Made by a program: the position numbers and the translations under genes. From Alphaproteobacteria bacterium (GTDB taxonomy: Bacteria; Pseudomonadota; Alphaproteobacteria; UBA828): a DNA stretch of 64,000 bases. Shown piece after piece: positions 4,980 through 21,411 of this stretch. The stretch's first letter is position 1; every line of letters begins with the position of its first letter. The stretch is from NCBI GenBank assembly GCA_963422645.2, contig CAXXVO010000008.1, positions 1 through 64,000 on the forward strand, read 5' to 3'. The notes under the pieces were generated by a model, which saw nothing but the letters and a program-made list of their open reading frames with translations, searched no databases and was not told the DNA's origin.

Positions 4980-5920
4980 AAATTCTCTTCGAAGATTTCG
5001 GCGTAGTTGCCGCCCGCTGCTATGGTGCGAACAGCCCATTCGGCATCGAGGCCAAGCATCTCGCCCAGAGAGCCTTCGGTGCCCAGCATCCGGTTGATCT
5101 CAGGGTGATCCGTTCCCTTCGCCATCTCCATGACGTTTGCCTGGGTCACACCGAGCTCTTCGGCGACGATCAGCGCGTTTAGCACCCAGCGCCCGATGTC
5201 CGCCCACTGATCGTCGCCGTGGCGCACCAGCGGCCCCAGCGGCTCCTTCGAGACGATCTCCGGGTAAATCGTGTGTGCCTCCGGGTCATCGAAGGTCGAC
5301 TTCGTCGCTGCCAGGCCCGAAATGTCCGTCGTGTAGGCGTCGCAGCGCTCCGCCTCGTAGGCCGCGCGGGCCTCGGCGTTGGTCTCCAGCGGCACGGGCT
5401 CATACGTGATGCCGTTGACGCGGAAGAAGTCAGCGAGGTTAAGCTCGGTGGTTGTGCCGGTCTGGATGCAGATCGAAGCGCCGTCGAGCTCGGTGGCGCT
5501 TTCCACGCCGAGCTCCCTCCGGCCAAGGAAACCCTGGCCGTCATAGTAGTTGATGCCGACGAAGGTGAAGCCCAGGTCGGCATCGCGCGAGAAGGTCCAG
5601 GTCGTGTTGCGCGACAGGATGTCGACTTCGCCGGAGGCTAAGGCCGGGAAGCGGGTCTTCCCGGTCAGGGTGACGAAGGAGACCTTGTCCGGATCGCCCA
5701 GTACGGCGGCCGCCAATGCGCGGCAATAGGCCGTCTCGAAGCCGGACCACCGGCCCGTGTCGTCGGTGTGGGAAAAGCCCGGCAGGCCCGGATTGATGCC
5801 GCACCTGAGCCGGTCGTTGGCCCGCACGTCGTCGAGCGTCGCAGCCTGAACCGGGAGCCCGGCCGCAATCGATAGCGCGCCGGCCACCGCAAGGGCGCCG
5901 GCGATCTTCGAGTGGTTCAC
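4980..5920 (-). pseudogene. aapJ: General L-amino acid ABC transporter substrate-binding protein (AapJ/BztA-like), IS-interrupted
   Basis: Signal peptide; SRNTTWTFSRD, NYYDGQGF and ISKEPLGPLVRHGD-like motifs. GTG start with RBS at 5920. Confidence 0.88.
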
Positions 5921-11412: not shown

Positions 11413-12954
11413 TCAGAAGCGCAATACGGGGATCAGCTGGATTGGATCGGGGTGCGCCAGGGTTTCGAGGACATTCCAGCGCTGTTTTCGAGCGGTGGCG
11501 ATGACGGATCGCAGGTTTGCGAAGTCGCGGGCGCCTTGTATCGAGCGGAAGCCGCCTGAGATTTTCTGGCGCAGCTTGCCCATTCGGAGGTCGCGCTCGG
11601 CCTCGTTGTTGGAGAAGGGGGTTCGCGGATCGGTGAGGAAGCGCAGGCACCCCTCCTTGTACTTCTGGAGTCGGAGGGCGAGGTTGTGACCGATGCGGCG
11701 CTTTTGTCGTCCGCGCTTTCCGGTCTGGAGCGGTGGCATTTCTTCGTGAGAGGCGATGGCACGTTCGAGGATGCGGTCCCAGGCTCGCGAGATGCGGGCC
11801 ACCAGTGAGGCGGGCACGTCGCGGTCGTTCTTGTGGGCGAAGCGGGCGGCTCTGTTGGCACGGATGAGGAGCCGGTGCGTGCTCGTTGCCCAGTCTTCCT
11901 TCTCGATCTCGATGAGGGCTTGGAGCTCGCGCAGGTGATGGGCGTTGCAGGCCCCGTGGCGCACGCCCTCGAGAGCGAAGTAGGTGGCGTAGTCGTCATG
12001 GATGACGATGCCGTTGAGCTTCTCGTCGATGTGGCTGCGCCCGGTGGCGACGCGCAGGATGGTGAGCAACGGGGTGCACAGCACATGGAGCCAATGGGTC
12101 CGGGCGGCGATGCGGATGCCGGTCTCGTCGAGGTGTTTGACTGGGGCTGCGGTGCGGATGATCTCCGCGAGGCGATCGAGGAAGCCCTCGAAGCGCCGGG
12201 CGGTGCGCCTTCCCATGGCGACGATGGTGGCTGTTGAGAGCTTGACCGCGAAGAGGTCGCTCATGACCTCGGCGACCCGCTTCTCGGGAATGAACTGAGC
12301 GTGCAGCAGGTAGGTCACCCACGCGGTGATGCGCGGCCCGTATTGGACCGGTGCGCTCACGCCGTTCGGGAAGACGGCTGTCGTCACGGTGCCGCAGGCA
12401 GCGCAGAGGCAACGATGGCCGCGATGTTCGGTGACCTCGAGGGGCTGCGGCTCGGGCACATCGAAGACCTGCCGGCAGACGGGGGCTCCGTGACGGTCAG
12501 CGTCCGACAGCGGCGCGCCGCAGCCCTCACAGGCGGACGGATCATGATCGACGACATGGTCGGGCGTCGCGGTCCGCTCCAGGGTAGTTCCCTTGTGGCC
12601 CGGCTGGCCGCCACTGGGCCTGTCGGACTTGCCGCGCTGGCTCCGGGTGCGCTTCTCCCGGTCACCGCTCTTCTTCTTCAGACCGTCGCTGGCCGGCGGC
12701 TTGGAGCTGGTGGTGCTGTCGAGCGCGGCGCTGCGCTCGAGTTCGGCGATCCGCTCGCGCAAGCGGGCGTTCTCCCGCTCCAGCGCGTCGTTCTCCTTGA
12801 CCAGGGCCGCGCTCAGGCGCAGCAACCTCTGGCCCCATTCCCGAATGGCTTTGACGGCGGTCATTGCGAAGGATTGTGGGGTGAAAAGGTCCTGCAGGCA
12901 CGCGAAGGCCTCGTCGTGGGCAGCGAGGTCCTCGTGCCAGCGCGACACTGTCAC
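11413..12954 (-). CDS. tnpC: IS66 transposase TnpC (intact)
   Basis: SSKPPASD, HLDETG, IHDDY, CNAHHLREL and SNNEAERDLR motifs. GTG start overlaps the methylase stop (GTGA). Confidence 0.92.
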   Translation of the reverse strand: MTVSRWHEDLAAHDEAFACLQDLFTPQSFAMTAVKAIREWGQRLLRLSAALVKENDALERENARLRERIAELERSAALDSTTSSKPPASDGLKKKSGDREKRTRSQRGKSDRPSGGQPGHKGTTLERTATPDHVVDHDPSACEGCGAPLSDADRHGAPVCRQVFDVPEPQPLEVTEHRGHRCLCAACGTVTTAVFPNGVSAPVQYGPRITAWVTYLLHAQFIPEKRVAEVMSDLFAVKLSTATIVAMGRRTARRFEGFLDRLAEIIRTAAPVKHLDETGIRIAARTHWLHVLCTPLLTILRVATGRSHIDEKLNGIVIHDDYATYFALEGVRHGACNAHHLRELQALIEIEKEDWATSTHRLLIRANRAARFAHKNDRDVPASLVARISRAWDRILERAIASHEEMPPLQTGKRGRQKRRIGHNLALRLQKYKEGCLRFLTDPRTPFSNNEAERDLRMGKLRQKISGGFRSIQGARDFANLRSVIATARKQRWNVLETLAHPDPIQLIPVLRF

Positions 12955-13619
12955 GAACCCTCGTCGGCCTCGACGGCCATGATCGCGGCCAGCACCGCCA
13001 GGCGTTCGCCCGCCGGCATGGCCTCGTAGCGCCGGCCCCAGTTGGCCGCCTTGCGCTTGATGCACTGGCGCTCGGTGAAGTTCCGGCCGGCGAAGCTCGC
13101 CCAGTGCACCCGGTCAGGCACGAAGTTGAACCACACGACCTCGGTCCGCACCTGGGCCTGGGTCGTCACCTGCAGCGCCAGCCGGCGCCAGCCCGCCAGC
13201 AGCTCGTCATAGAGCGCAGACGGGTGGCCCGAGACCATCACCTGGCAGGGCAGACCCTTGAGCAGTTCGAGGAGCGCGACGTGGTCGGCCTCCTCGTACT
13301 CGAAGCGGTAGCGCTGCGACGAACGCCGGGTCGCGTGCAGATAGGGCGGATCGCTGTAGACCAGCTCCGGGCCCAGAAACGGGAACGAGGCCAGGAAGGA
13401 ATGGGCGCAGCCGGGCACCAACTCCACCGGGTAGTCGCAGCCAAAGGCCTCAAGCGCCCGCTCGTCGCGGTCGATCCCGATCGAGCGCATGGCCGCAGGC
13501 TTGCGCTTCATCAGCGCCCCGCCCCCAAGATGGCTCTCGATATAGACAGAGTGCCGCGGCATCAGCGCAATCAGCGCCTGGCTCAGACCGGTCGTCGCCT
13601 TCGACCCGAAATACCCCAC
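12951..13619 (-). CDS. Short Dam/D12-like N6-adenine DNA methyltransferase
   Basis: YFGSK N-terminus, YIESHLGGG SAM-binding motif and DPPY catalytic motif. Confidence 0.85.
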   Translation of the reverse strand: MGYFGSKATTGLSQALIALMPRHSVYIESHLGGGALMKRKPAAMRSIGIDRDERALEAFGCDYPVELVPGCAHSFLASFPFLGPELVYSDPPYLHATRRSSQRYRFEYEEADHVALLELLKGLPCQVMVSGHPSALYDELLAGWRRLALQVTTQAQVRTEVVWFNFVPDRVHWASFAGRNFTERQCIKRKAANWGRRYEAMPAGERLAVLAAIMAVEADEGS

Positions 13620-13647
13620 CGGCTGCTCCTCTCATGCGAGAGTGCAA

Positions 13648-13676
13648 CCCATAGGCGAGAGAACCTATACAGTCAA
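13648..13676 (-). promoter_or_regulatory. Putative promoter of the methylase-tnpC operon
   Basis: TTGACT-17 nt-TATGGG, overlapped by an ATAGG...CCTAT inverted repeat. Confidence 0.5.
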
Positions 13677-13850
13677 GCGGGGATCAACGACGCGCCGACG
13701 GCGAAACGGCACCGACGGCAAGCAACATCAGCACGCACTCAGAACTGGCGGCGGGGTACCTGGGTAGTTACTCCATCTCAATCTCCTTGCTCACCATTGC
13801 GGGCGTCGTCGAGTTTGGCCGGCGTCCGCCCGCGCCGGTGCGGCGCGCGG

Positions 13851-15542
13851 TTATTGGGCGCCTGCGACGGTGCCTACCCGGCGAAGGTCGGCGGTGGCGG
13901 TCTCGTCAAGCATGCCGTCACCCGAGACGGCGACGGCATAGTCCCGCCGGGCGGACTCGGGTGAGACCAGGTCGTTCTGCACGTCGGCAGCCACGTCCTC
14001 GGCGGCGCGATGGCGGGGGTCGCCGTAGCCGGCCCCGCCGGGGAGCACCAGCTTGAGACGCTTGCCCGGCGGGATGGTCTGTTGCCCCTTGCCGCGCAGC
14101 GTGGTGCCGTCGTCGAGCGCGACCGTGCCCGCTGCGCCATCGAGCCCGCCGCCCCGGCCTCGTGCGGGGTTGTCGATGCGCTCGAATTGCGCGAGCACGC
14201 TGAAGGGCGCACCGTCCGCGCCACCGATCTCCATCACCTGGCCGAGCCCGCCGCGCAGCAAGCCGGCGCCGCCGGTATCCTCCGCAAGCTCCTTCCGCCA
14301 GATCACGATGGGCGCGACCGTCTCGGTGGCCTCCGCCGGTATGGTGCGCACACCGCTTGGGAAGGCCGTCGCAGACAGGCCGTCCTTGGTCGGCCGCGCG
14401 CCGGCGCCCCCTGAGTTGAAGAGCGCCACCTCGAACTCCGGCGGCTCGAACGCCGCGTTGCGCCGGGCCTCGCTGTCGATCGCCGTCGCACCGCCGCGCA
14501 GCTGCACGATCCAGAGCGAGGCCGCGCCCTCCGCCGGCACCCGCTCGGGGATCGCCTGATGCAGGCAGCCGAACACCAGATCGGGCAGCATATGGCCGAT
14601 GACGTGGCGGGCCGCGACCGGCCACGGCCTGGGCGCGTTGAGGATCGAGCCCGCCGGCGCCGAGACGGTGAGCGGCGCGAGCGAGCCCGCGTTGTTCGGT
14701 ATGTCTTTCGCCACGATGCACTTGAGGCCGAAGCTCGTGTAAGCGGTGGTGTAGTTGAGCACCACGTTGATGCCGTGATTGCTGGCGGGCGAGGTGCCGG
14801 TGAAATCGACGTGGATTCCGTCGCCCGAGATGGTCATGGCGGCGACCAGCGTGATCGGCTCGTCGTAGCCGTCCATGGTGAGCGTGTTGCGGTAGGTGGC
14901 CTTGGGCAGCTCGGCGATGGCTGCCAGGGTCGCCGCGCGCGAGCGTTCGATGATCTCCCCGCCCAGCGCATCGAGGTCGGTCAGTCCGAATTCCTCCATC
15001 ATGGAGAGCAACCGGTCGGCGCCCGCCCGGTTGCAGGCGATGAGCGAGTGAACGTCGCCTTCGAGCTGGAGCGGCTCGCGCACATTCCAGCGCACCATCT
15101 CCAGCAGATCCTCGTTGATCCGGCCCTCGCGGCAGAGCGGCATGATCGGGATGTAGAGGCCTTCCTCGAACACCGATCGCGCATCCGGCCCGAAGCCGCG
15201 CCCGCCGATGTCGACCACGTGCGCGGTGCAGGCGAAGGAGCCGATCACCTGGCCTTCACGGAACACCGGGGTCACCACCGTGAGGTCGTGCAGGTGACCG
15301 CAGGTGAGCCATGGGTCGTTGGTGATGTAGACGTCGCCCTCACGCATGACCTCGTTGGGGTAGCGGTCGAGAAAATGCTGCACGGCGATGGCCATGGAGT
15401 TCACGTGGCCAGGCGTGCCGGTGACCGCTTGGGCCAGCATCCGGCCCTTGGTGTCGAAGACGCCGGCGGAGAGGTCGCCCGCCTCGCGCACGGTGGTGCT
15501 GAAGGCGGTGCGCAGCAGCGTCTGCGCCTGCTCTTCGACCAC
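13851..15542 (-). pseudogene. Hydantoinase B/oxoprolinase subunit, 5'-truncated
   Basis: Begins abruptly at VEEQAQTLLRTAFS; TNDPW..GHLHD and HVVDIGG motifs. Upstream DNA is transposon sequence. Confidence 0.85.
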
Positions 15543-16449
15543 CCTCGGCTACCGCAGAGACCCGACCGACCGGGCGCGCTTCAAGCGCGGGGGCTCGGTC
15601 ATCAGCATCAACGGCGAGAAGTTCTTCGATCACCTGCGCGGCACGGGAGGGGGTGGCGCCATCGACCTCGTCATCCATGCGACGGGATGCCGCTTCCCGG
15701 AAGCCCTCCGCTTCCTCGGAAGCCATGAGGGGCGGAGGGAGATCACCACCATCCCAGCCGCCCCGCGACGCCTGCGGCTGCCAAGGCCCAGTCCCCGCGC
15801 CTGGCCCAGGGTCCGGGACGCCCTCATCCGCCAACGCGCTATCGGCACCGACGTGCTCGAAGCCTGCCACGGCCGAGGCCTCCTCTACGCCGATGACAGG
15901 ATCAACGCCGTCTTCATCTGCCGAAACGCCAGCGGGCACACGACCGGCGCCGAGATCCTCGGCACCGCGCCGCAGCCCGGAACAAAACGCTTCAGGGGCA
16001 TGGCCCCGGGATCGCGCAAGGCGCGTGGCGGCTTCTGGCTCCACTGCGACCGAAACCAGCCCGCCCTCGTCATCCTCACCGAGAGCGCCGTCGACGCCAT
16101 CTCTGCACGAAGCCTGCGCGTCGAGGGGACGCGCGAGAACGGCGCCGTCGTCGCCTCAACCGCCGGCATCGCCAGCTCGGTCCCGCCCTGGATCAAGGAG
16201 TGGAAGCCACGTCGCATCGTCTGTGCCTACGACGCAGACAGCGCCGGCGACACTGCCGCCGAGCATCTCGTGCTCAACGATCCAAGGGTGAAAAGGTTGC
16301 GCCCACGACACGCCAAGGACTGGAACGAGATGCTCCTGCGGTCTCGATGAAAGCCAGGCCACTCACCGCTCTCGCAGATCAACCAAGCGCCGCATCACGA
16401 ACATCAAATAATCCGAAAACCGCACCATCAAATGCTGGGCGCACGCTCA
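15542..16449 (+). mobile_element. Right-end fragment (908 bp) of the 31295-36483 transposon, with 5'-truncated Toprim gene
   Basis: Matches 35576-36483 (identical ORF translations). Identity stops exactly at ...GCGCACGCTCA. Confidence 0.93.
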
Positions 16450-16450
16450 C

Positions 16451-16684
16451 CTGGTCGCCGAGCGCTCGGGCACCGACGGCCACGCCGACCGCTTCTGGGC
16501 GCTCGCGCTCGCCTGCCTCTCGGCCTCGCAGGCATCCGGCCCCTTCCAGGCCTGGATCGGCGAGGGCCGCCACGCCGTCCATGACATGCCGGGCTCCCCC
16601 CTCGACGGCGATACCGGCTACCGCATCGACACCGAACTCGGCGTCGTCCATTCCCCCCTCTCCGCCCTGAACGGCTGGCGATAG
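16451..16684 (+). pseudogene. C-terminal remnant of a Mu-like terminase large subunit (gp28)
   Basis: LVAERSGTDGHADRFWALALA motif directly upstream of the portal gene. Confidence 0.75.
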
Positions 16685-16687
16685 CCC

Positions 16688-18175
16688 ATGGCCGCGCCCG
16701 CCCCCGCACGTCCCGGGACCGCCGAGATCGCAGGCCCGCAGGCCGGCATCGGCGGCATCGGCGAGCTCGTCCTCCCCTGGCTCGACAGCGACCCGGCGCT
16801 CGGCGCCGACCCCCGCCAGTGGCAGGCCGATCCCACCGGGATCGCGGCCGCACAGGCCGCGCTCCGCGACCCCCACGCCCGCGCCGTCCTCGACCAGCGC
16901 CTCGACGCCGTCACGGCCGCCCCCCTCGATATCGAACCCGGCGGCCCGATGCGCCGCGACAGACAGGCCGCCGGGGACCTCGCGGACCAGTTCGGCGGGA
17001 TCGAGATCGACCGCATCTCCCGCGAACTCCTCCACGCCGCCTGGTACGGATACAGCATCGCCGAGTGCATCTGGGAGATCGACGGCGCCCGCGTCCGCCT
17101 CGCCGATCTCAAGGTCCGCGACCCCGCCCGCTTCCGCTGGCGCAGGGACGGAACCCCGCTGCTCGTTACCCGCGAGAACCCGCGCGGCGCCGAACTCCCG
17201 CCCGCCAAGTTCGTCGTGCTGACCCAGCCCCGCAGCCACGGCGGCCAGCCCCACGGCCCCGGCGCCGCACAGTGGTGCCTCTGGCCGGTCTGGCTCAAGC
17301 GCCAGGCTGTGCGCATGTGGGCGGTCGCGCTCGAGAAGTTCGGCAGCCCCACCGCCATCGGCACCGTCCGCCGCGACGCGCCGGCGGCCGAGATCGAGAC
17401 GATGCTCCAGGCCCAGCGCGCCATGGCCGGAGGCGCCGGCCTCGTCATCCCCGAAGGCCAGGAACTCAGGCTGCTCGACTCGGCCCGCCGCGCCGGCGGC
17501 GACTACGGCGCCTTCGTCGCAGCCCTCGACGGCATGATCGCGGACGCCGTCCTCGGCCAGCGCGCAACCTCCGAGATCGGACCCTGGCGCGGCACCGCCG
17601 AAGTCCAGGCCAAGGTGCTGGAGCGCCTCGTCGCCGCCGACGCCCGACGGCTCTCCGCCGCGCTGCGCAACTCCGTCGCCGCCTGGCTCACCCAATGGAA
17701 CTTCCCCGGCGCAGACGTGCCCGAACTCGCCCGCAACACCGCGCCCCCCGAGGACCTCGTGGCCCGCGCCAGGCGCGAGGAGACCGTCGCCCGAACCTCG
17801 GGCCTCCGCCCCACCCCCGCCCATGTCGAGCAGGTCTACGGCGGAGAATGGGAGAAAGCCCCCGACGCGCCCCCGACGCCAGGCGGCGATCCCCGCCCCG
17901 CGCGCCTCGCCGAGCCGGCGCAGCAGGACGACGACGCCATCGACGACGCCGTGGACGCGATCGCCGCAGACTGGCAGCCCCTCATGGAGCCGGTCGTCGC
18001 CCCCGTGCTCGGCGCCGCAGAGAACGCCGACAGCCTCGGCCGCTTCCGTGCCGCGCTCGACGAGCGCCAGCTCTGGGAGGACATGAACGCAGACCGCATC
18101 GCCCGCCGCCTCCGCCGCACCGCATTCTCCGCCCGCCTCTCCGGCGACGCAGGCCTCGACGAGGGCGAGGGCTGA
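16688..18175 (+). CDS. Mu-like portal protein (gp29/DUF935)
   Basis: AWYGYSIAECIW, LEKFGSP and AVLGQ motifs; terminase-portal-gp30 gene order. Confidence 0.85.
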   Translation: MAAPAPARPGTAEIAGPQAGIGGIGELVLPWLDSDPALGADPRQWQADPTGIAAAQAALRDPHARAVLDQRLDAVTAAPLDIEPGGPMRRDRQAAGDLADQFGGIEIDRISRELLHAAWYGYSIAECIWEIDGARVRLADLKVRDPARFRWRRDGTPLLVTRENPRGAELPPAKFVVLTQPRSHGGQPHGPGAAQWCLWPVWLKRQAVRMWAVALEKFGSPTAIGTVRRDAPAAEIETMLQAQRAMAGGAGLVIPEGQELRLLDSARRAGGDYGAFVAALDGMIADAVLGQRATSEIGPWRGTAEVQAKVLERLVAADARRLSAALRNSVAAWLTQWNFPGADVPELARNTAPPEDLVARARREETVARTSGLRPTPAHVEQVYGGEWEKAPDAPPTPGGDPRPARLAEPAQQDDDAIDDAVDAIAADWQPLMEPVVAPVLGAAENADSLGRFRAALDERQLWEDMNADRIARRLRRTAFSARLSGDAGLDEGEG

Positions 18176-19368
18176 TGCCCGCGCCCGAGATCCTGGACGT
18201 ACCCCCCGCCGAGGCCGTCGAGCACTTCCGCGCCAGGGGCTTCCACGTCGGCTTCGACTGGCGCGACACCGATGCCGAGCAGCACCTGGTCTCCTTCACC
18301 GCCGCCAAGACCGCGAAGCTCGACATCCTCCAGGACCTGCGCACCGCCGCCGACAAGGCCATCGCGGACGGCACAACCTTCGAGACCTTCCGCGCCGAGC
18401 TCGAACCCACCCTGGTCCGCAAGGGATGGTGGGGCAGGCAGCCCATGACCGATCCCGTCACCGGCAAGACGCGCATCGTCCAGCTCGGCTCGGCCCACCG
18501 CCTGCGCATTATCTTCGATACCAACATCCGCATGGCCTACGCCCGCGGCCGATGGGAGCGCATCGAGCGCCTCAGGGAGGCCATGCCCTGGCTCCGCTAC
18601 GTCGCCGTCCAGGACGCCCGCACCAGGCCCGACCACCTCGCATGGCACGGCACCATCCTTCCGGTCGATCACCCCTTCTGGCAGACGCACTACCCGCCCA
18701 ACGGATGGAAGTGCCGCTGCATCGTCCAGCAGTTCGGAGACGACGACCTGGAGCGCTACGGATACAAGGTGTCCGAGGGTCCGCCGCCCGGCTCCGGGCG
18801 CACCAGGCCCTGGAAGAACCGCCGCACAGGCCGCGTCCACCAGGTCCCCCCCGGCATCGATCCCGGCTTCCAGCACAACGTCGGCCGCGCCCGGCCCGGG
18901 CGCGACAGCGCAAACCGCCTGATCGAGAAGATCGACGACGCGCCCCCCGACCTCGCACGCGCCGCCATAGGCCAACCCTGGCGCGGGCAGCTCTTCCGCC
19001 GCCACCTCGAAGGCCGGTCCGACGCCGACTGGCCCGCGGCCGTGCTCTCCGCCCCGGTGCGCGGCGCCATCGGCGCACGCTCCCGAACCGTCCGCCTCTC
19101 CACAGAAACCGCCGCAAAGCAGGCCAGGAGACACCCCGATCTCGAACCCGCAGACTACGCCCGCGTCCAGCGCATCCTCGATCAAGGGGAGATGTTCGCC
19201 GGCTACGAACGTCAGGCCGTCGGCTTCCTCGAAGAGAACGGCCGCCTGTGGCGCGCCGTCGTCAAGGCCACCGTGGACGGCTCCGAGACTTATCTCGTGA
19301 CCCTTCACAAGGCGCAGCCCCGGGACCGCGACGTGGCGCAGCGGCGTTGGGTCAGGATCGAGCTTTGA
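18175..19368 (+). CDS. Mu gp30/MuF head morphogenesis protein with C-terminal PBECR-like domain
   Basis: RLRIIFDTN, RTRPDH, FWQTHYPPNGWKCRC and GIDPGF motifs, plus a ~110-aa extension (KQARRHPDL..DY..RAVVKAT..ETYLVTLHK). Confidence 0.85.
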   Translation: MPAPEILDVPPAEAVEHFRARGFHVGFDWRDTDAEQHLVSFTAAKTAKLDILQDLRTAADKAIADGTTFETFRAELEPTLVRKGWWGRQPMTDPVTGKTRIVQLGSAHRLRIIFDTNIRMAYARGRWERIERLREAMPWLRYVAVQDARTRPDHLAWHGTILPVDHPFWQTHYPPNGWKCRCIVQQFGDDDLERYGYKVSEGPPPGSGRTRPWKNRRTGRVHQVPPGIDPGFQHNVGRARPGRDSANRLIEKIDDAPPDLARAAIGQPWRGQLFRRHLEGRSDADWPAAVLSAPVRGAIGARSRTVRLSTETAAKQARRHPDLEPADYARVQRILDQGEMFAGYERQAVGFLEENGRLWRAVVKATVDGSETYLVTLHKAQPRDRDVAQRRWVRIEL

Positions 19369-19377
19369 AGGGAAAGA

Positions 19378-19446
19378 TGGCGCCGGGCGGGCCGCAACCC
19401 CCGCGCTCGCCCGAAGGCATGAGAGTCATGCGTGCTTCCAGCGCCA
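19378..19446 (-). ncRNA. Candidate tRNA-like small RNA convergent with the MuF-nuclease gene
   Basis: 9-bp closing stem UGGCGCUGG/CCGGCGCCA stacked on a 5-bp GCGGG/CCCGC arm, with internal hairpins. Promoter-like TTGAGG-17-TAGGGT lies 5 nt upstream. Confidence 0.5.
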
Positions 19447-19451
19447 CGCCG

Positions 19452-19480
19452 ACCCTACGCGCCGCCGCACGCCACCTCAA
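19452..19480 (-). promoter_or_regulatory. Putative sigma70 promoter for the small RNA
   Basis: TTGAGG (19480-19475), 17-nt spacer, TAGGGT (19457-19452). Confidence 0.5.
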
Positions 19481-19655
19481 GCCGATTCAGCGCCCCGGCG
19501 CGGGCCGCCGCCAGCCTCGCGGGACGGGCGCCTCGCCCCGGATTTTCCAGCCGAATCCGATACCCCGAAACCGACCCGATTTGCCGCCGTCGCAAGACCC
19601 CTGAAACGCCCCGAAAATCGCCGTTTCCAGCCGATTCACGGTCGCTTCCAGACCG

Positions 19656-19799
19656 GATTCGCAAAGACTTTCGTCCGCCCGCCGCGACGCACCCGCCGTT
19701 GACGACGCCCCGCATCCCCTTGAGATTCCGCCACCTTCCGCCCGATTCCGCCTGATTCCACCCCTTGACCCGATTCACAACGACTTTCGTCCGTCTACA
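19656..19799 (+). repeat. Mu-like right end: two 22-bp direct repeats and terminal CA
   Basis: GATTCGCAAAGACTTTCGTCCG (19656-19677) vs GATTCACAACGACTTTCGTCCG (19772-19793), 20/22 identical. ...TCTACA ends at the hydantoinase A junction. Confidence 0.7.
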
Positions 19800-21411
19800 C
19801 TCCTCGCGCGACGATAGCGGCGGCCTCGTCGCGCATTTCCTCTAGCACCCGGTTGGCGGTGTCGGGGTTGAAAGCGCTCACGACCTGATAGGCGCTGCGC
19901 ACCACCTCGTAGGCGACCGGCGCACGAAGGAAGCCCACCGCCGAGCCGACGGCTGCGGCAGTTGGGATCAGGATGCGGTCCATGTCGAGCTTCTCGGCGA
20001 GGCGGGCGGCGTGCAGGGGCGCTGCGCCGCCGAACGCGATCATTGTGCGCTCGCCGAGCGTGGCTCCGATCTCGATGGCGTGGACGCGCGCGGCGCTCGC
20101 CATGTTCTCCCCCACCATCTCGCCGACCCCAAGGGCGGCCACCTGCGGTTCCAGATCCAGCGGCGAGCCGATCGCTGACGCGAGCGTATTGACGGCGGCC
20201 TGCTCGTCGAGCGCGATGCGCCCGCCCGAGAAATCGCCAGAGTCGATGCGCCCCATCACCAGATCGGCGTCGGTCACCGTGGGCTCCGCACCGCCCTGGC
20301 CGTAGCAGGCCGGTCCCGGCTGGGCGCCGGCGCTTTCCGGCCCCACCGCGATGCGGCCCAACCGGTCCACGGCGGCGATGGAGCCGCCGCCTGCGCCGAT
20401 CTCCACCATCTCGATCACCGGGATGCGGAGCGGCAGGCCGCTACCCTTGAGAAAGCGATGGGCCCGGGCGACCTCGAAGGCCCGCGTCGTTTGAGGCTGG
20501 GCGTTGTCGATCAGGCAGATCTTGGCTGTGGTGCCGCCCATGTCGAAGGAGAGAACGCGATCGAGGCCACATTGGCGGGCGACGTGGCTGGCGAAGACGG
20601 CGCCGCCCACCGGGCCGGATTCCACAAGGCGGATGGGAAAGCGGATTGCCGTCCCGATGTCGGCGACGCCGCCGCCCGAGAGCATGACGAAGAGCGGGCA
20701 GCGGAAACCCGCTTCGCGCAGGCCAGCTTCCAGATTGCGCAGATAGCGCGCCATGACCGGCTGGACGTAGGCGTTGGCGCAGGCAGTGGAGAAGCGCTCG
20801 TACTCGCGCATCTCCGGTGCCACCTCTGACGACAGAGTGATTGCGAGGTCAGGCAGCGCCTTGCGCAGGATGTCGTGTACCCGTCGCTCGTGCGCCGGAT
20901 TGACGTAGCTGTGCAGGAGGCCGACCGCGGCGCTCTCGATGCCCTCGGCGGCGAGCCGGGTGGCCGTGGTTGCGACCGCCGACTCGTCGAGCGGCAGGAT
21001 CGGATCGCCAGAGGCGTTGAGCCGCTCGGGGATGGGGAAGCGCCATTGCCGGGGCACCAGCGGCACCGGCTTCTCCATGTCGATGTCGTACTGCTCGAAG
21101 CGGCTCTCCGTGCCCATCTCGATGGAATCGCGGAATCCCTCCGTGGTGATCAGCGCGGTGCGTGCGCCCTTGCGCTCGATCAGTGCGTTGGTCGCGAGCG
21201 TGGTGCCGTGGATGACCAGCGCCACCTCGTGCGGTGCGACGCCGCATGCCTCCATCGCCTGCGCCAGCCCCTGGCGCACACCCTCCTCGGGCGCGTCGGG
21301 CGTCGTCAGCACCTTCGCCGTGAACCGCTCAGTTCCTCGCTCGAGCACGATATCGGTGAAGGTGCCGCCGATATCGACGCCGATCCGAACCTCAACGCCC
21401 GTTCGCGTCAT
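19795..21411 (-). pseudogene. Hydantoinase A/oxoprolinase subunit, 3'-truncated by the Mu-like end
   Basis: GVDIGGTFTD, HGTTLATN, DMGGTT and GPESAGA motifs. Stops 1-2 codons into the phage end and lacks the usual C-terminal domain. Confidence 0.85.

Follow-up and report, generated by a model that had tools for sequence, protein, structure and literature searches.

The 64,000-nucleotide stretch of alphaproteobacterial DNA considered here (GTDB lineage UBA828; positions 1 to 64,000 of contig CAXXVO010000008.1, assembly GCA_963422645.2), hereafter the window, carries a gene for a MuF-family phage head protein, preceded by a Mu-type portal gene and followed by a non-coding tail. Within that tail, on the minus strand and antisense to MuF, lies a small structured RNA element that begins about 10 nt past the MuF stop codon (Table 1). 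A first-pass annotation, made from the sequence alone, had proposed at this place a promoter-driven, tRNA-like RNA facing a MuF nuclease, and both the letters it quoted and their spacing from the stop codon are as it gave them. Throughout, G-numbers denote the genomes compared (G000 being the window's own), C-numbers denote contigs and L-numbers denote the loci compared.

Table 1. Features at and around the RNA element, in window positions.
Feature	Positions	Strand	Remarks
Small structured RNA, short form, ~72 nt	19376..19448	-	Extent of covariance-model R1 match, 90 bits, E 9e-20; alignment A4
P1 5' strand GGCGCUGG	19438..19445	-	Pairs with 19379-19386; double changes in 4/8 pairs, 95.2% of cells paired
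P1 3' strand CCGGCGCC	19379..19386	-	Pair counts of A4
J1/2 linker	19424..19437	-	Holds CGCA 19429-19432, pseudoknot partner of UGCG 19393-19396 in P3 loop
P2 hairpin CUC-AU-GCC-(UUCG)-GGC-GAG	19406..19423	-	Tetraloop 19412-19415; double changes in 5/6 pairs
Single C joining P2 to P3	19405	-	
P3 hairpin GCGGG-(GGUUGCGG)-CCCGC	19387..19404	-	Strands 19400-19404 / 19387-19391; double changes in 3/5 pairs
Pyrimidine-rich 3' tail AUCUUUCCCUUCA	19366..19378	-	Reaches complement of MuF stop codon (19366-19368)
-10 box TAGGGT	19452..19457	-	Predicted start ~19445-19446
-35 box TTGAGG	19475..19480	-	17-nt spacer to -10
MuF-family head protein, 398 aa	18172..19368	+	Pfam PF04233, E 1.2e-21; residues 55-185 = Phage_Mu_F
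MuF-C/BECR-like RNase-fold domain (predicted), residues ~224-398	18841-19365	+	AlphaFold2 model, fold matches
Mu-type portal protein	16688..18175	+	Pfam Portal_Mu, E 2.3e-78
431-bp non-coding tail	19369-19799	.	
Mu-type element right end	19528..19799	+	Repeated GATTC..GACTTTCGTCCG sites, core 19669 and 19785; terminus ...TCTACA at 19799
911-bp high-copy repeat	15539..16449	.	~25 copies at 99.8-100% identity; abuts and truncates the element's left side
hyuB	13851-15542	-	Profiles of GC at third codon positions (GC3), Pfam
hyuA	19795-21411	-	GC3 profiles, Pfam

In its short form the element consists of a closing helix (P1) and two internal hairpins (P2 and P3), and the sequences compared show strong evidence of conservation of this arrangement. 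The pair U19446-A19378 provides an optional ninth pair for P1, and P3 abuts the P1 3' strand with zero spacer, as in the earlier description of a closing stem stacked directly on a 5-bp hairpin. P1, P2, and P3 were all recovered by RNAalifold from 12 sequences. In alignment A4, which holds 22 matches (21 distinct) fitted to the covariance model, 95.4% of the P1-P3 cells are paired, compared with 40-48% when the 3' partners are slid out of register, and both-sided changes are seen in 12 of 19 pairs; neither the percentage paired nor the covariation score was reached by any of 500 shuffles. The compensatory nature of these changes is apparent in L108, where the P2 strands CUC/GAG and GCC/GGC are replaced by CGU/ACG and GGC/GCC around an unchanged UUCG loop, and the P3 strands GCGGG/CCCGC by GAGGG/CCCUC. 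The UUCG tetraloop, which the first-pass annotation had listed among its internal hairpins, is found in 20 of the 21 distinct short forms, whereas the other hairpin it drew, GCAUGA(CUC)UCAUGC, exists only in the window copy and its 98% identical twin and differs from the conserved P2.

A fourth pairing links the CGCA of J1/2 to the UGCG of the P3 loop. These columns (26-29 with 63-66 of A4) are left unpaired in the covariance model, and they are nonetheless paired in 86.7% of cells, a share that falls to 15-49% on sliding; their covariation score is 0.406, versus 0.229 in shuffles (0/500 reach the observed value). Pair 28-64 is CG in 15 sequences and UA in 6, pair 29-63 is AU in 11, CG in 4, GC in 1, and UA in 1, and the in-register variants of the pseudoknot include CGUA/UACG, GCAA/UUGC, CCGCC/GGCGG, CGUC/GACG, CGUGA/UCACG, and CGCU/AGCG. 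The column test was adopted because unconstrained complementarity between J1/2 and the P3 loop, with scores of 4.38 for a sequence's own pairs, 3.90 for cross pairs, and 3.83 for shuffled ones, gives no separation and is too weak a measure. In two solo copies (L070 and L056), which lie beside transposases, the pseudoknot is broken and the promoter is absent.

The promoter shows a comparable regularity of placement. When the 52 nt upstream are scored for a -35/-10 pair, the best one stops 6-7 nt short of P1 in 17 of 21 short forms; the mean consensus match is 7.8/12 versus 5.8 in shuffles, and the convergent TTGAGG-17-TAGGGT promoter pointed out in the first-pass annotation thus finds counterparts at a fixed distance in most homologues, its predicted start agreeing with the 5' end of P1. 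Among these counterparts are TTGACA-17-TATGCT (L100), TTGAAA-17-TAAATT (L077), TTGACC-17-TAAATT (L073), and TTGACG-18-TATATT (L071), and TTGCGG also occurs as a -35 box at 17-nt spacing. The four exceptions are the two solo copies and two loci (L041 and L026) in which the best pair was scored elsewhere. In the forms of the element other than the short one, a TAnnnT hexamer precedes the closing helix by 4-10 nt in 16 of 24 cases, compared with 12% of shuffles. This conservation points to transcription of the minus strand from a sigma-70-type promoter of its own, with a probable start near 19445. All short-form homologues possess C/U-rich tails, and it is possible that the transcript ends within the pyrimidine-rich tail.

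In the window's own genome the ~72-nt block is retained in all 11 element copies that reach that far, with a nearly invariant core and a few variable bases between the core and the stop codon. A DNA search of 60 related genomes returned matches to exactly window 19369-19447, at 79-98% identity, in four genomes of the same genus (G002, G011, G015, and G016); the remainder of the tail was unmatched there, the flanks were unrelated, and the block again followed the C-terminal codons of a MuF homologue or its remnant. Under stricter filters, covariance model R1 detected the element in five of the 20 further genomes scanned from the genus, and 23 genomes representing nine other genera of the family gave no match. 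R1 was also run over 68 loci, namely L056, L070, and 66 MuF loci taken from public genomes, and matched nine (L071, L072 with two copies, L073, L077, L080, L098, L100, L108, and L114), with all matches antisense and located 5-50 nt past the MuF stop. In G015 (L024/L072), the sole genome with two copies, the RNAs lie approximately 290 nt apart and each follows the last codons of a MuF C-terminus. An exact core pattern had no match in IMG/VR.

When the 170 nt past the MuF stop were read in more distant Mu-like phages, a longer element (78-109 nt) became apparent at the same position. R1 and R2, run with default filters over 80 and 100 MuF loci, gave no significant match, and the long forms in those loci were recognized by eye and with MAFFT/RNAalifold. 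In the 14 examples designated type A, aligned by MAFFT alone (alignment A6), the closing helix encloses three hairpins: one of 4 bp whose loop has 14 nt, one that is variable, and one that directly adjoins the closing helix on its 3' strand. Two of the loops kiss through pairs such as CUCCC/GGGAG, CUUCC/GGAAG, CUGCC/GGCAG, and CUUGC/GCAAG; 92.6% of cells in the long form are paired, compared with 33-48% when slid, double changes affect 17 of 27 pairs, and the kissing helix is itself 97% paired. As judged from these alignments, the long form is a predicted cloverleaf-like four-helix RNA of ~95-107 nt with a contact resembling that of the D and T loops, and the short form is a putative member of the same wider family. 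Types B and C (L116, L117, L120, L123, L167, L202, L213; L110, L184, L187, L205, L220), which span 78-124 nt and have strong closing helices, were also observed, and type B seems to carry a 5' extension.

Two cultivated phages extend the distribution of the element. In the Ochrobactrum phage POA1180, 308 bp without annotation separate gp04 (MuF) from gp05 (protease), and R2 with filters off matches the minus strand there at locus positions 5142-5215 with 31.7 bits (E 4.5e-6). In the Haemophilus phage SuMu a long form accompanied by TTGATT-17-TATATT was identified by eye. In both phages the element lies in the middle of the head operon, with the protease or G genes after it. Phage Mu, whose F and G genes overlap, has no gap there, and no match was found next to F. 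The sole sizeable gap in that part of Mu (L233, record 17389-18056), between G and I, is the annotated gyrase site, and a MuF-linked RNA was not seen there.

The presence of the RNA follows the type of domain found at the C-terminus of MuF. An AlphaFold2 model of the window MuF C-domain (predicted local distance difference test, or pLDDT, 87) has only BECR toxins among its top VIA-align rows, with Z of 4.0-5.9 over 72-84 residues: the closest are CdiA-CT (5i4q, Z 5.9), 7vd7 (Z 5.8), BrnT (Z 5.5), and 8ey4 (Z 5.0), followed by colicin D (Z 4.8 and 4.0), with RelE and YafQ at approximately 3.6, and Foldseek returned BrnT with probability 0.99 and TMt 0.70. The domain thus models as a BECR-type RNase fold, in agreement with the nuclease domain of BECR kind that the first-pass annotation had supposed. 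Among 19 aligned relatives, PBECR3 matches two (best E 2.4e-4) and MuF_C one (sequence criterion PF18812 or PF18819), and most relatives carry, by eye, HP[DE] and [ST]x[HR][RK] motifs. A perfectly paired closing helix of 7 bp or more, starting no more than 15 nt past the stop and spanning 55-125 nt, was found behind 29 of 38 MuF genes with a MuF-C domain. Where the C-domain is of another kind (metallopeptidase-like, ART-like) or missing, 1 of 23 MuF genes has such a helix; the shuffle rate is 7-8%, and some of these loci are near-duplicates. In the MuF loci examined with metallopeptidase-like or ART-like C-domains, an open reading frame (ORF), not an RNA, comes next. Mu, B23, and L199 have neither the RNA nor the putative catalytic His (by eye), and across the loci the correlation between the two is imperfect.

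The tRNA-like character assigned to the element by the first-pass annotation stands for its topology, and no relationship to tRNA is detectable. The short form resembles a tRNA in its length of approximately 72 nt, in a closing-stem 3' strand contiguous with a 5-6-bp hairpin, and in a loop-loop pairing where the D and T loops of tRNA meet, and the long form adds a four-helix cloverleaf with a 4-bp D-like stem. It differs in that P2 is capped by a tetraloop instead of a 7-nt anticodon loop, and in that the P3 loop, of 8-9 nt and variable in sequence (GGUUGCGG, GUUUACGA, GAUUGCGU, and others), has no T-loop motif (UUCRANY). The CCA end previously read from this copy dissolves on comparison, as the bases after P1 vary among copies (CA, CU, or CG): there is a helix plus one base and no conserved discriminator-CCA. 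A tRNA or tmRNA gene is ruled out by the absence of ARAGORN and tRNA-model matches. The only ARAGORN call in the window is a tRNA-Met at 2842-2917, with nothing at the RNA site, and nothing was called at the site in 21 loci. Rfam gave no match at gathering score in the window and none at E<=10 in 19330-19830, RF00005 included, nor any at E<=0.1 in 12 related loci; no Rfam 15 family was matched (pRNA, hammerhead, and Mu-gpT-DE being among those covered). A small ORF on either strand is likewise ruled out, since frames differ between copies, the C13/C15 type is interrupted by a stop codon, and indel lengths are not multiples of three.

We tentatively favor a reading in which the MuF-C domain has this RNA as its cognate ligand, most likely as an inhibitory pseudo-substrate, and we regard it as quite possible, if short of probable. 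The RNA would be transcribed opposite MuF from its own sigma-70-type promoter, as a molecule of roughly 72 nt followed by a short C/U-rich tail, and would fold compactly, with P1 closing the structure, P3 abutting P1, the P3 loop pairing with J1/2, and C(UUCG)G capping P2. This tRNA-shaped pseudo-substrate would then bind the MuF-C domain and mask it in the lysogen or the producing cell, in the manner of an antitoxin, up to the point at which MuF is incorporated into the head. The comparison establishes the fold with its pseudoknot, the conservation of the promoter, the constant placement, and the occurrence together with the domain; transcription, binding, and inhibition are inferred. The reading draws on the covariation in both short and long forms, the promoter, the link to MuF-C, and the predicted BECR fold, as well as on the decay of the solo copies and the lack of any conserved ORF. 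The passages of Iyer et al. (2017; PMC5512222) that deal with this domain name it MuF-C/PBECR, predict RNA binding or RNase activity for it, describe it as a likely RNase in orthologues, and call it inactive in Mu gp30, where it would act "probably via RNA binding"; that Mu has neither gap nor match behind F fits the proposed ligand relationship.

Several observations weigh against this interpretation. The first-pass annotation had asked for a comparison of homologues and for a shuffle control: the former, with 21 distinct homologues, yields a conserved and covarying fold plus a convergent promoter, and in the latter the minus strand of the window copy (minimum free energy -32.6 kcal/mol) is no better than its shuffles (z = -0.32; 65 of 200 equally stable), while the plus strand folds better (z = -2.45). 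The U-G pair from which minus-strand usage had been argued holds for the window copy and loses its force over the family, where the wobble counts lean mildly to the minus strand and are not decisive in the short form (9 G-U versus 6 A-C) and also lean mildly that way in the long form (about 15 G-U versus 8 A-C). Many of the sequences compared are related copies, so that the counts of changes overstate the number of independent events. Pfam returns no match at E<=10 for the C-terminal 175 residues of the window MuF, and the fold-match Z values of 5-6 are modest, though consistent. SuMu has the RNA and lacks, by eye, the putative catalytic HP[DE] His, a combination that suits an RNA ligand better than an antitoxin only, and L158 and L208 have the His and no visible RNA. 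Lastly, MuF is a late gene, expressed in a cell about to lyse, and the need for an antitoxin is therefore unclear.

The first alternative, which we consider unlikely but worth weighing, is that of a structural or co-packaged RNA, which would form a ribonucleoprotein with MuF-C and aid assembly of the head at the portal, as phi29 pRNA does, or be packaged and injected with MuF (the "DNA pilot") so as to act early in the next host, for instance as a decoy for host tRNA-targeting defenses. The element adjoins the terminase-portal-MuF packaging module, has a tRNA-like topology, and is kept in SuMu in the absence of the putative catalytic His; moreover, MuF-type proteins are described as head components thought to be injected, and MuF-C as predicted to bind RNA, in the relevant passages of Iyer et al. 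(2017; PMC5512222). The lack of similarity to pRNA or tRNA models and a promoter that looks constitutive, not late, speak against it. A bolder scenario, to which we assign a somewhat smaller probability, has the tRNA-shaped RNA riding with MuF-C as a ribonucleoprotein in the capsid and being injected with the DNA to act within minutes of entry, perhaps by decoying host anticodon nucleases or by aiming the nuclease as its specificity subunit. We know of no virion-borne RNA cofactor in tailed DNA phages, and if the RNA were packaged, it would represent a new kind of virion cargo.

It is likewise unlikely that the element acts through cis-antisense pairing or transcriptional interference, with a convergent promoter firing into the late head operon at its 3' end to hold down leaky expression of portal and MuF in the lysogen, or to trigger mRNA cleavage, and with a fold that mainly stabilizes the RNA. 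Such a role would account for the conservation of the convergent promoter at a fixed place and for an RNA 3' tail that reaches the MuF stop codon, and the action of lambda OOP on cII provides a precedent. It sits poorly with an overlap of only a few bases with MuF, should the RNA end past P1, with a covarying pseudoknot or kissing loop and a cloverleaf that amount to far more structure than antisense pairing needs, and with an element that tracks the C-terminal domain and not MuF as such. More doubtful is a trans-acting phage small RNA that would target host or phage mRNAs via its C/U-rich tail or its loops, the linkage to MuF being historical only. The element's own promoter and its conserved, pyrimidine-rich 3' tail, which resembles an anti-Shine-Dalgarno sequence, are what one might look for in such a regulator, but its strict position and domain association are maintained across distant phages, both unlinked copies have decayed, and its most conserved parts are structural.

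Very little probability attaches to the notion that the relevant unit is a plus-strand 3' untranslated region element (a late-operon terminator or mRNA stabilizer) or a DNA-level site at a transposon end. The helices can form on either strand, the plus strand of the window copy has the lower z value already given, and the element lies here approximately 350 nt from the right end of the mobile element; against this, the C(UUCG)G loop becomes CGAA on the plus strand, the promoter hexamers are meaningful solely on the minus strand, and in POA1180 and SuMu there is no transposon end near the mid-operon position, where termination would do harm. Stems arising by chance in GC-rich DNA, which the non-significant single-sequence shuffle control might have suggested, can be dismissed in view of covariation in every helix, the pseudoknot, and 79-98% conservation amid unrelated flanks.

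Several known systems offer partial analogies with the proposed ligand of MuF-C. Type III toxin-antitoxin systems (ToxIN, CptIN) combine an endoribonuclease with an adjacent small pseudoknotted RNA that is encoded upstream on the same strand as tandem repeats and processed by the ToxN-like toxin. The arrangement described here would be analogous in placing a small pseudoknotted RNA beside a protein of predicted endoRNase fold, for which direct neutralization is proposed, and differs in that the structured RNA is single, lies downstream in antisense orientation under its own promoter, and adjoins a BECR-fold domain that is fused to a virion protein and is not ToxN-like. Lambda OOP is a short promoter-driven RNA that converges on the 3' end of a phage gene, overlapping cII by tens of bases and acting by antisense pairing; the present RNA shares the convergent layout, but it extends scarcely as far as the stop codon and possesses a tertiary fold that covaries. 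The structured pRNA of phage phi29, which has loop-loop pairing and a multi-helix junction, is tied to the portal and to packaging. The family described here also combines a multi-helix fold and loop-loop pairing with proximity to portal and packaging genes, yet it has no sequence or model similarity to pRNA (Rfam) and belongs to a different phage group, and a role in packaging would be hypothetical.

Polymorphic toxins with protein immunity were reportedly described by Zhang and colleagues in 2012. In the MuF polymorphic toxins, as presented in the parts of Jamet et al. (2017; PMC5576092) that concern them, a variable C-terminal effector is borne on a MuF N-domain and a neutralizer is expected directly downstream; the window gene shares the MuF N-domain and variable C-terminal effector, but the neutralizers so described are proteins, and the passages of that paper on RNase, non-coding, small RNA, intergenic, and EndoU mention no RNA. 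Similarly, the passages on PBECR/MuF-C in Iyer et al. (2017; PMC5512222) treat the same domain class and propose no RNA partner. In line with the earlier remark that the arrangement was undescribed, no description of an RNA gene after MuF was found in searches of the open full-text literature or in the passages of these two papers.

With this element, a very common head module of phages gains a well-supported structured RNA family that Rfam 15 lacks, and unannotated gaps after MuF genes, such as that of POA1180, find an explanation. The RNA would also be the first candidate ligand of PBECR/MuF-C, supplying a concrete candidate partner for a domain whose RNA role was predicted in 2017 with no named partner in the passages concerned (PMC5512222). 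If the RNA does inhibit the domain, it would constitute an RNA antitoxin for a BECR-fold RNase, the BECR neutralizers among the fold matches and in the cited papers being proteins.

The first-pass annotation had placed this RNA in a Mu-like phage, but the locus is a 3.35-kb left-truncated piece (16450-19799: portal, MuF, RNA, and right end) of a multicopy Mu-type element. An intact Mu-like prophage is ruled out, as only these four components are present and the remainder of the window is chromosomal; the interval from 44 to 59 kb holds an EF-G/EF-Tu/ribosomal-protein/SecY cluster. The gene order indicates a 4.2-kb insertion that has come between two paired hydantoinase genes, hydantoinase/oxoprolinase B and A, and the terminal CA of the element overlaps the stop codon region of hyuA.

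Within its own genome, the 426-bp tail query (19369-19794) has 43 matches and the MuF protein 12. Fuller copies add a large terminase upstream (C9:185004-189882, C8:85071-89404, and C15:383832-388277), a further eight are left-truncated at differing points, and all stop at the base equal to window 19799. At least 22 genomic sites read ...GATTCACAACGACTTTCGTCCGTCTACA and end at the same CA, beyond which the DNA is unrelated, and an internal copy of the GATTCGCAAAGACTTTCGTCCG motif lies approximately 116 nt inward from the element end. The right end of phage Mu (...CGTTTTTCGTGCGCCGCTTCA) is of the same kind, with subterminal TTTCG repeats and a terminal CA, and the element thus displays the hallmarks of a Mu-type end: a sharp ...CA terminus, repeated subterminal sites, and many insertions with differing flanks. 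No MuA/MuB-type transposase is encoded in the window fragment; one weak MuB_C match lies upstream of the C8 copy. Overall, the terminase-portal-MuF-RNA element is present in approximately 11 copies, accompanied by about 9 solo ends (87-92% identity, one at 100%) and about 20 diverged ends (72-80%).

Other repeats are associated with these elements. The 911-bp repeat often abuts truncated copies of the MuF element, and its long ORF (within 15388-16350, plus strand) matches DUF3991 and Toprim_2, not a usual transposase family. A second multicopy family (L020, G000 C15:40280-45328), in which a 312-aa MuF-like gene directly precedes a 270-bp related end, comprises approximately 10 copies and a truncation series and has no RNA motif; a 3.5-kb repeat with a 2OG-Fe(II) oxygenase ORF adjoins both this family and the first family's copy on C15. 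Another end type, ...GATTCGCAAAGACTTTCGTCCGGCTACA, occurs with unrelated flanks in G000 at C5:252157, C6:9151, C8:804497, C9:256579, C9:628854, C13:74315, C14:63001, and C15:297846, and at C9:628065-628870 such an end faces an inverted end of the second family in what may be a miniature element of about 800 bp. One Roseovarius metagenome-assembled genome (L084-L097, L099, L104, L106, and L124) contains at least 18 near-identical MuF loci with a metallopeptidase-like C-domain, indicating that multicopy MuF-bearing elements exist in another lineage too. Elsewhere in the window, an IS66-family element occupies 11413-13771, and its last ~770 bp are multicopy and fall into two identity classes, at approximately 99% and 88%.

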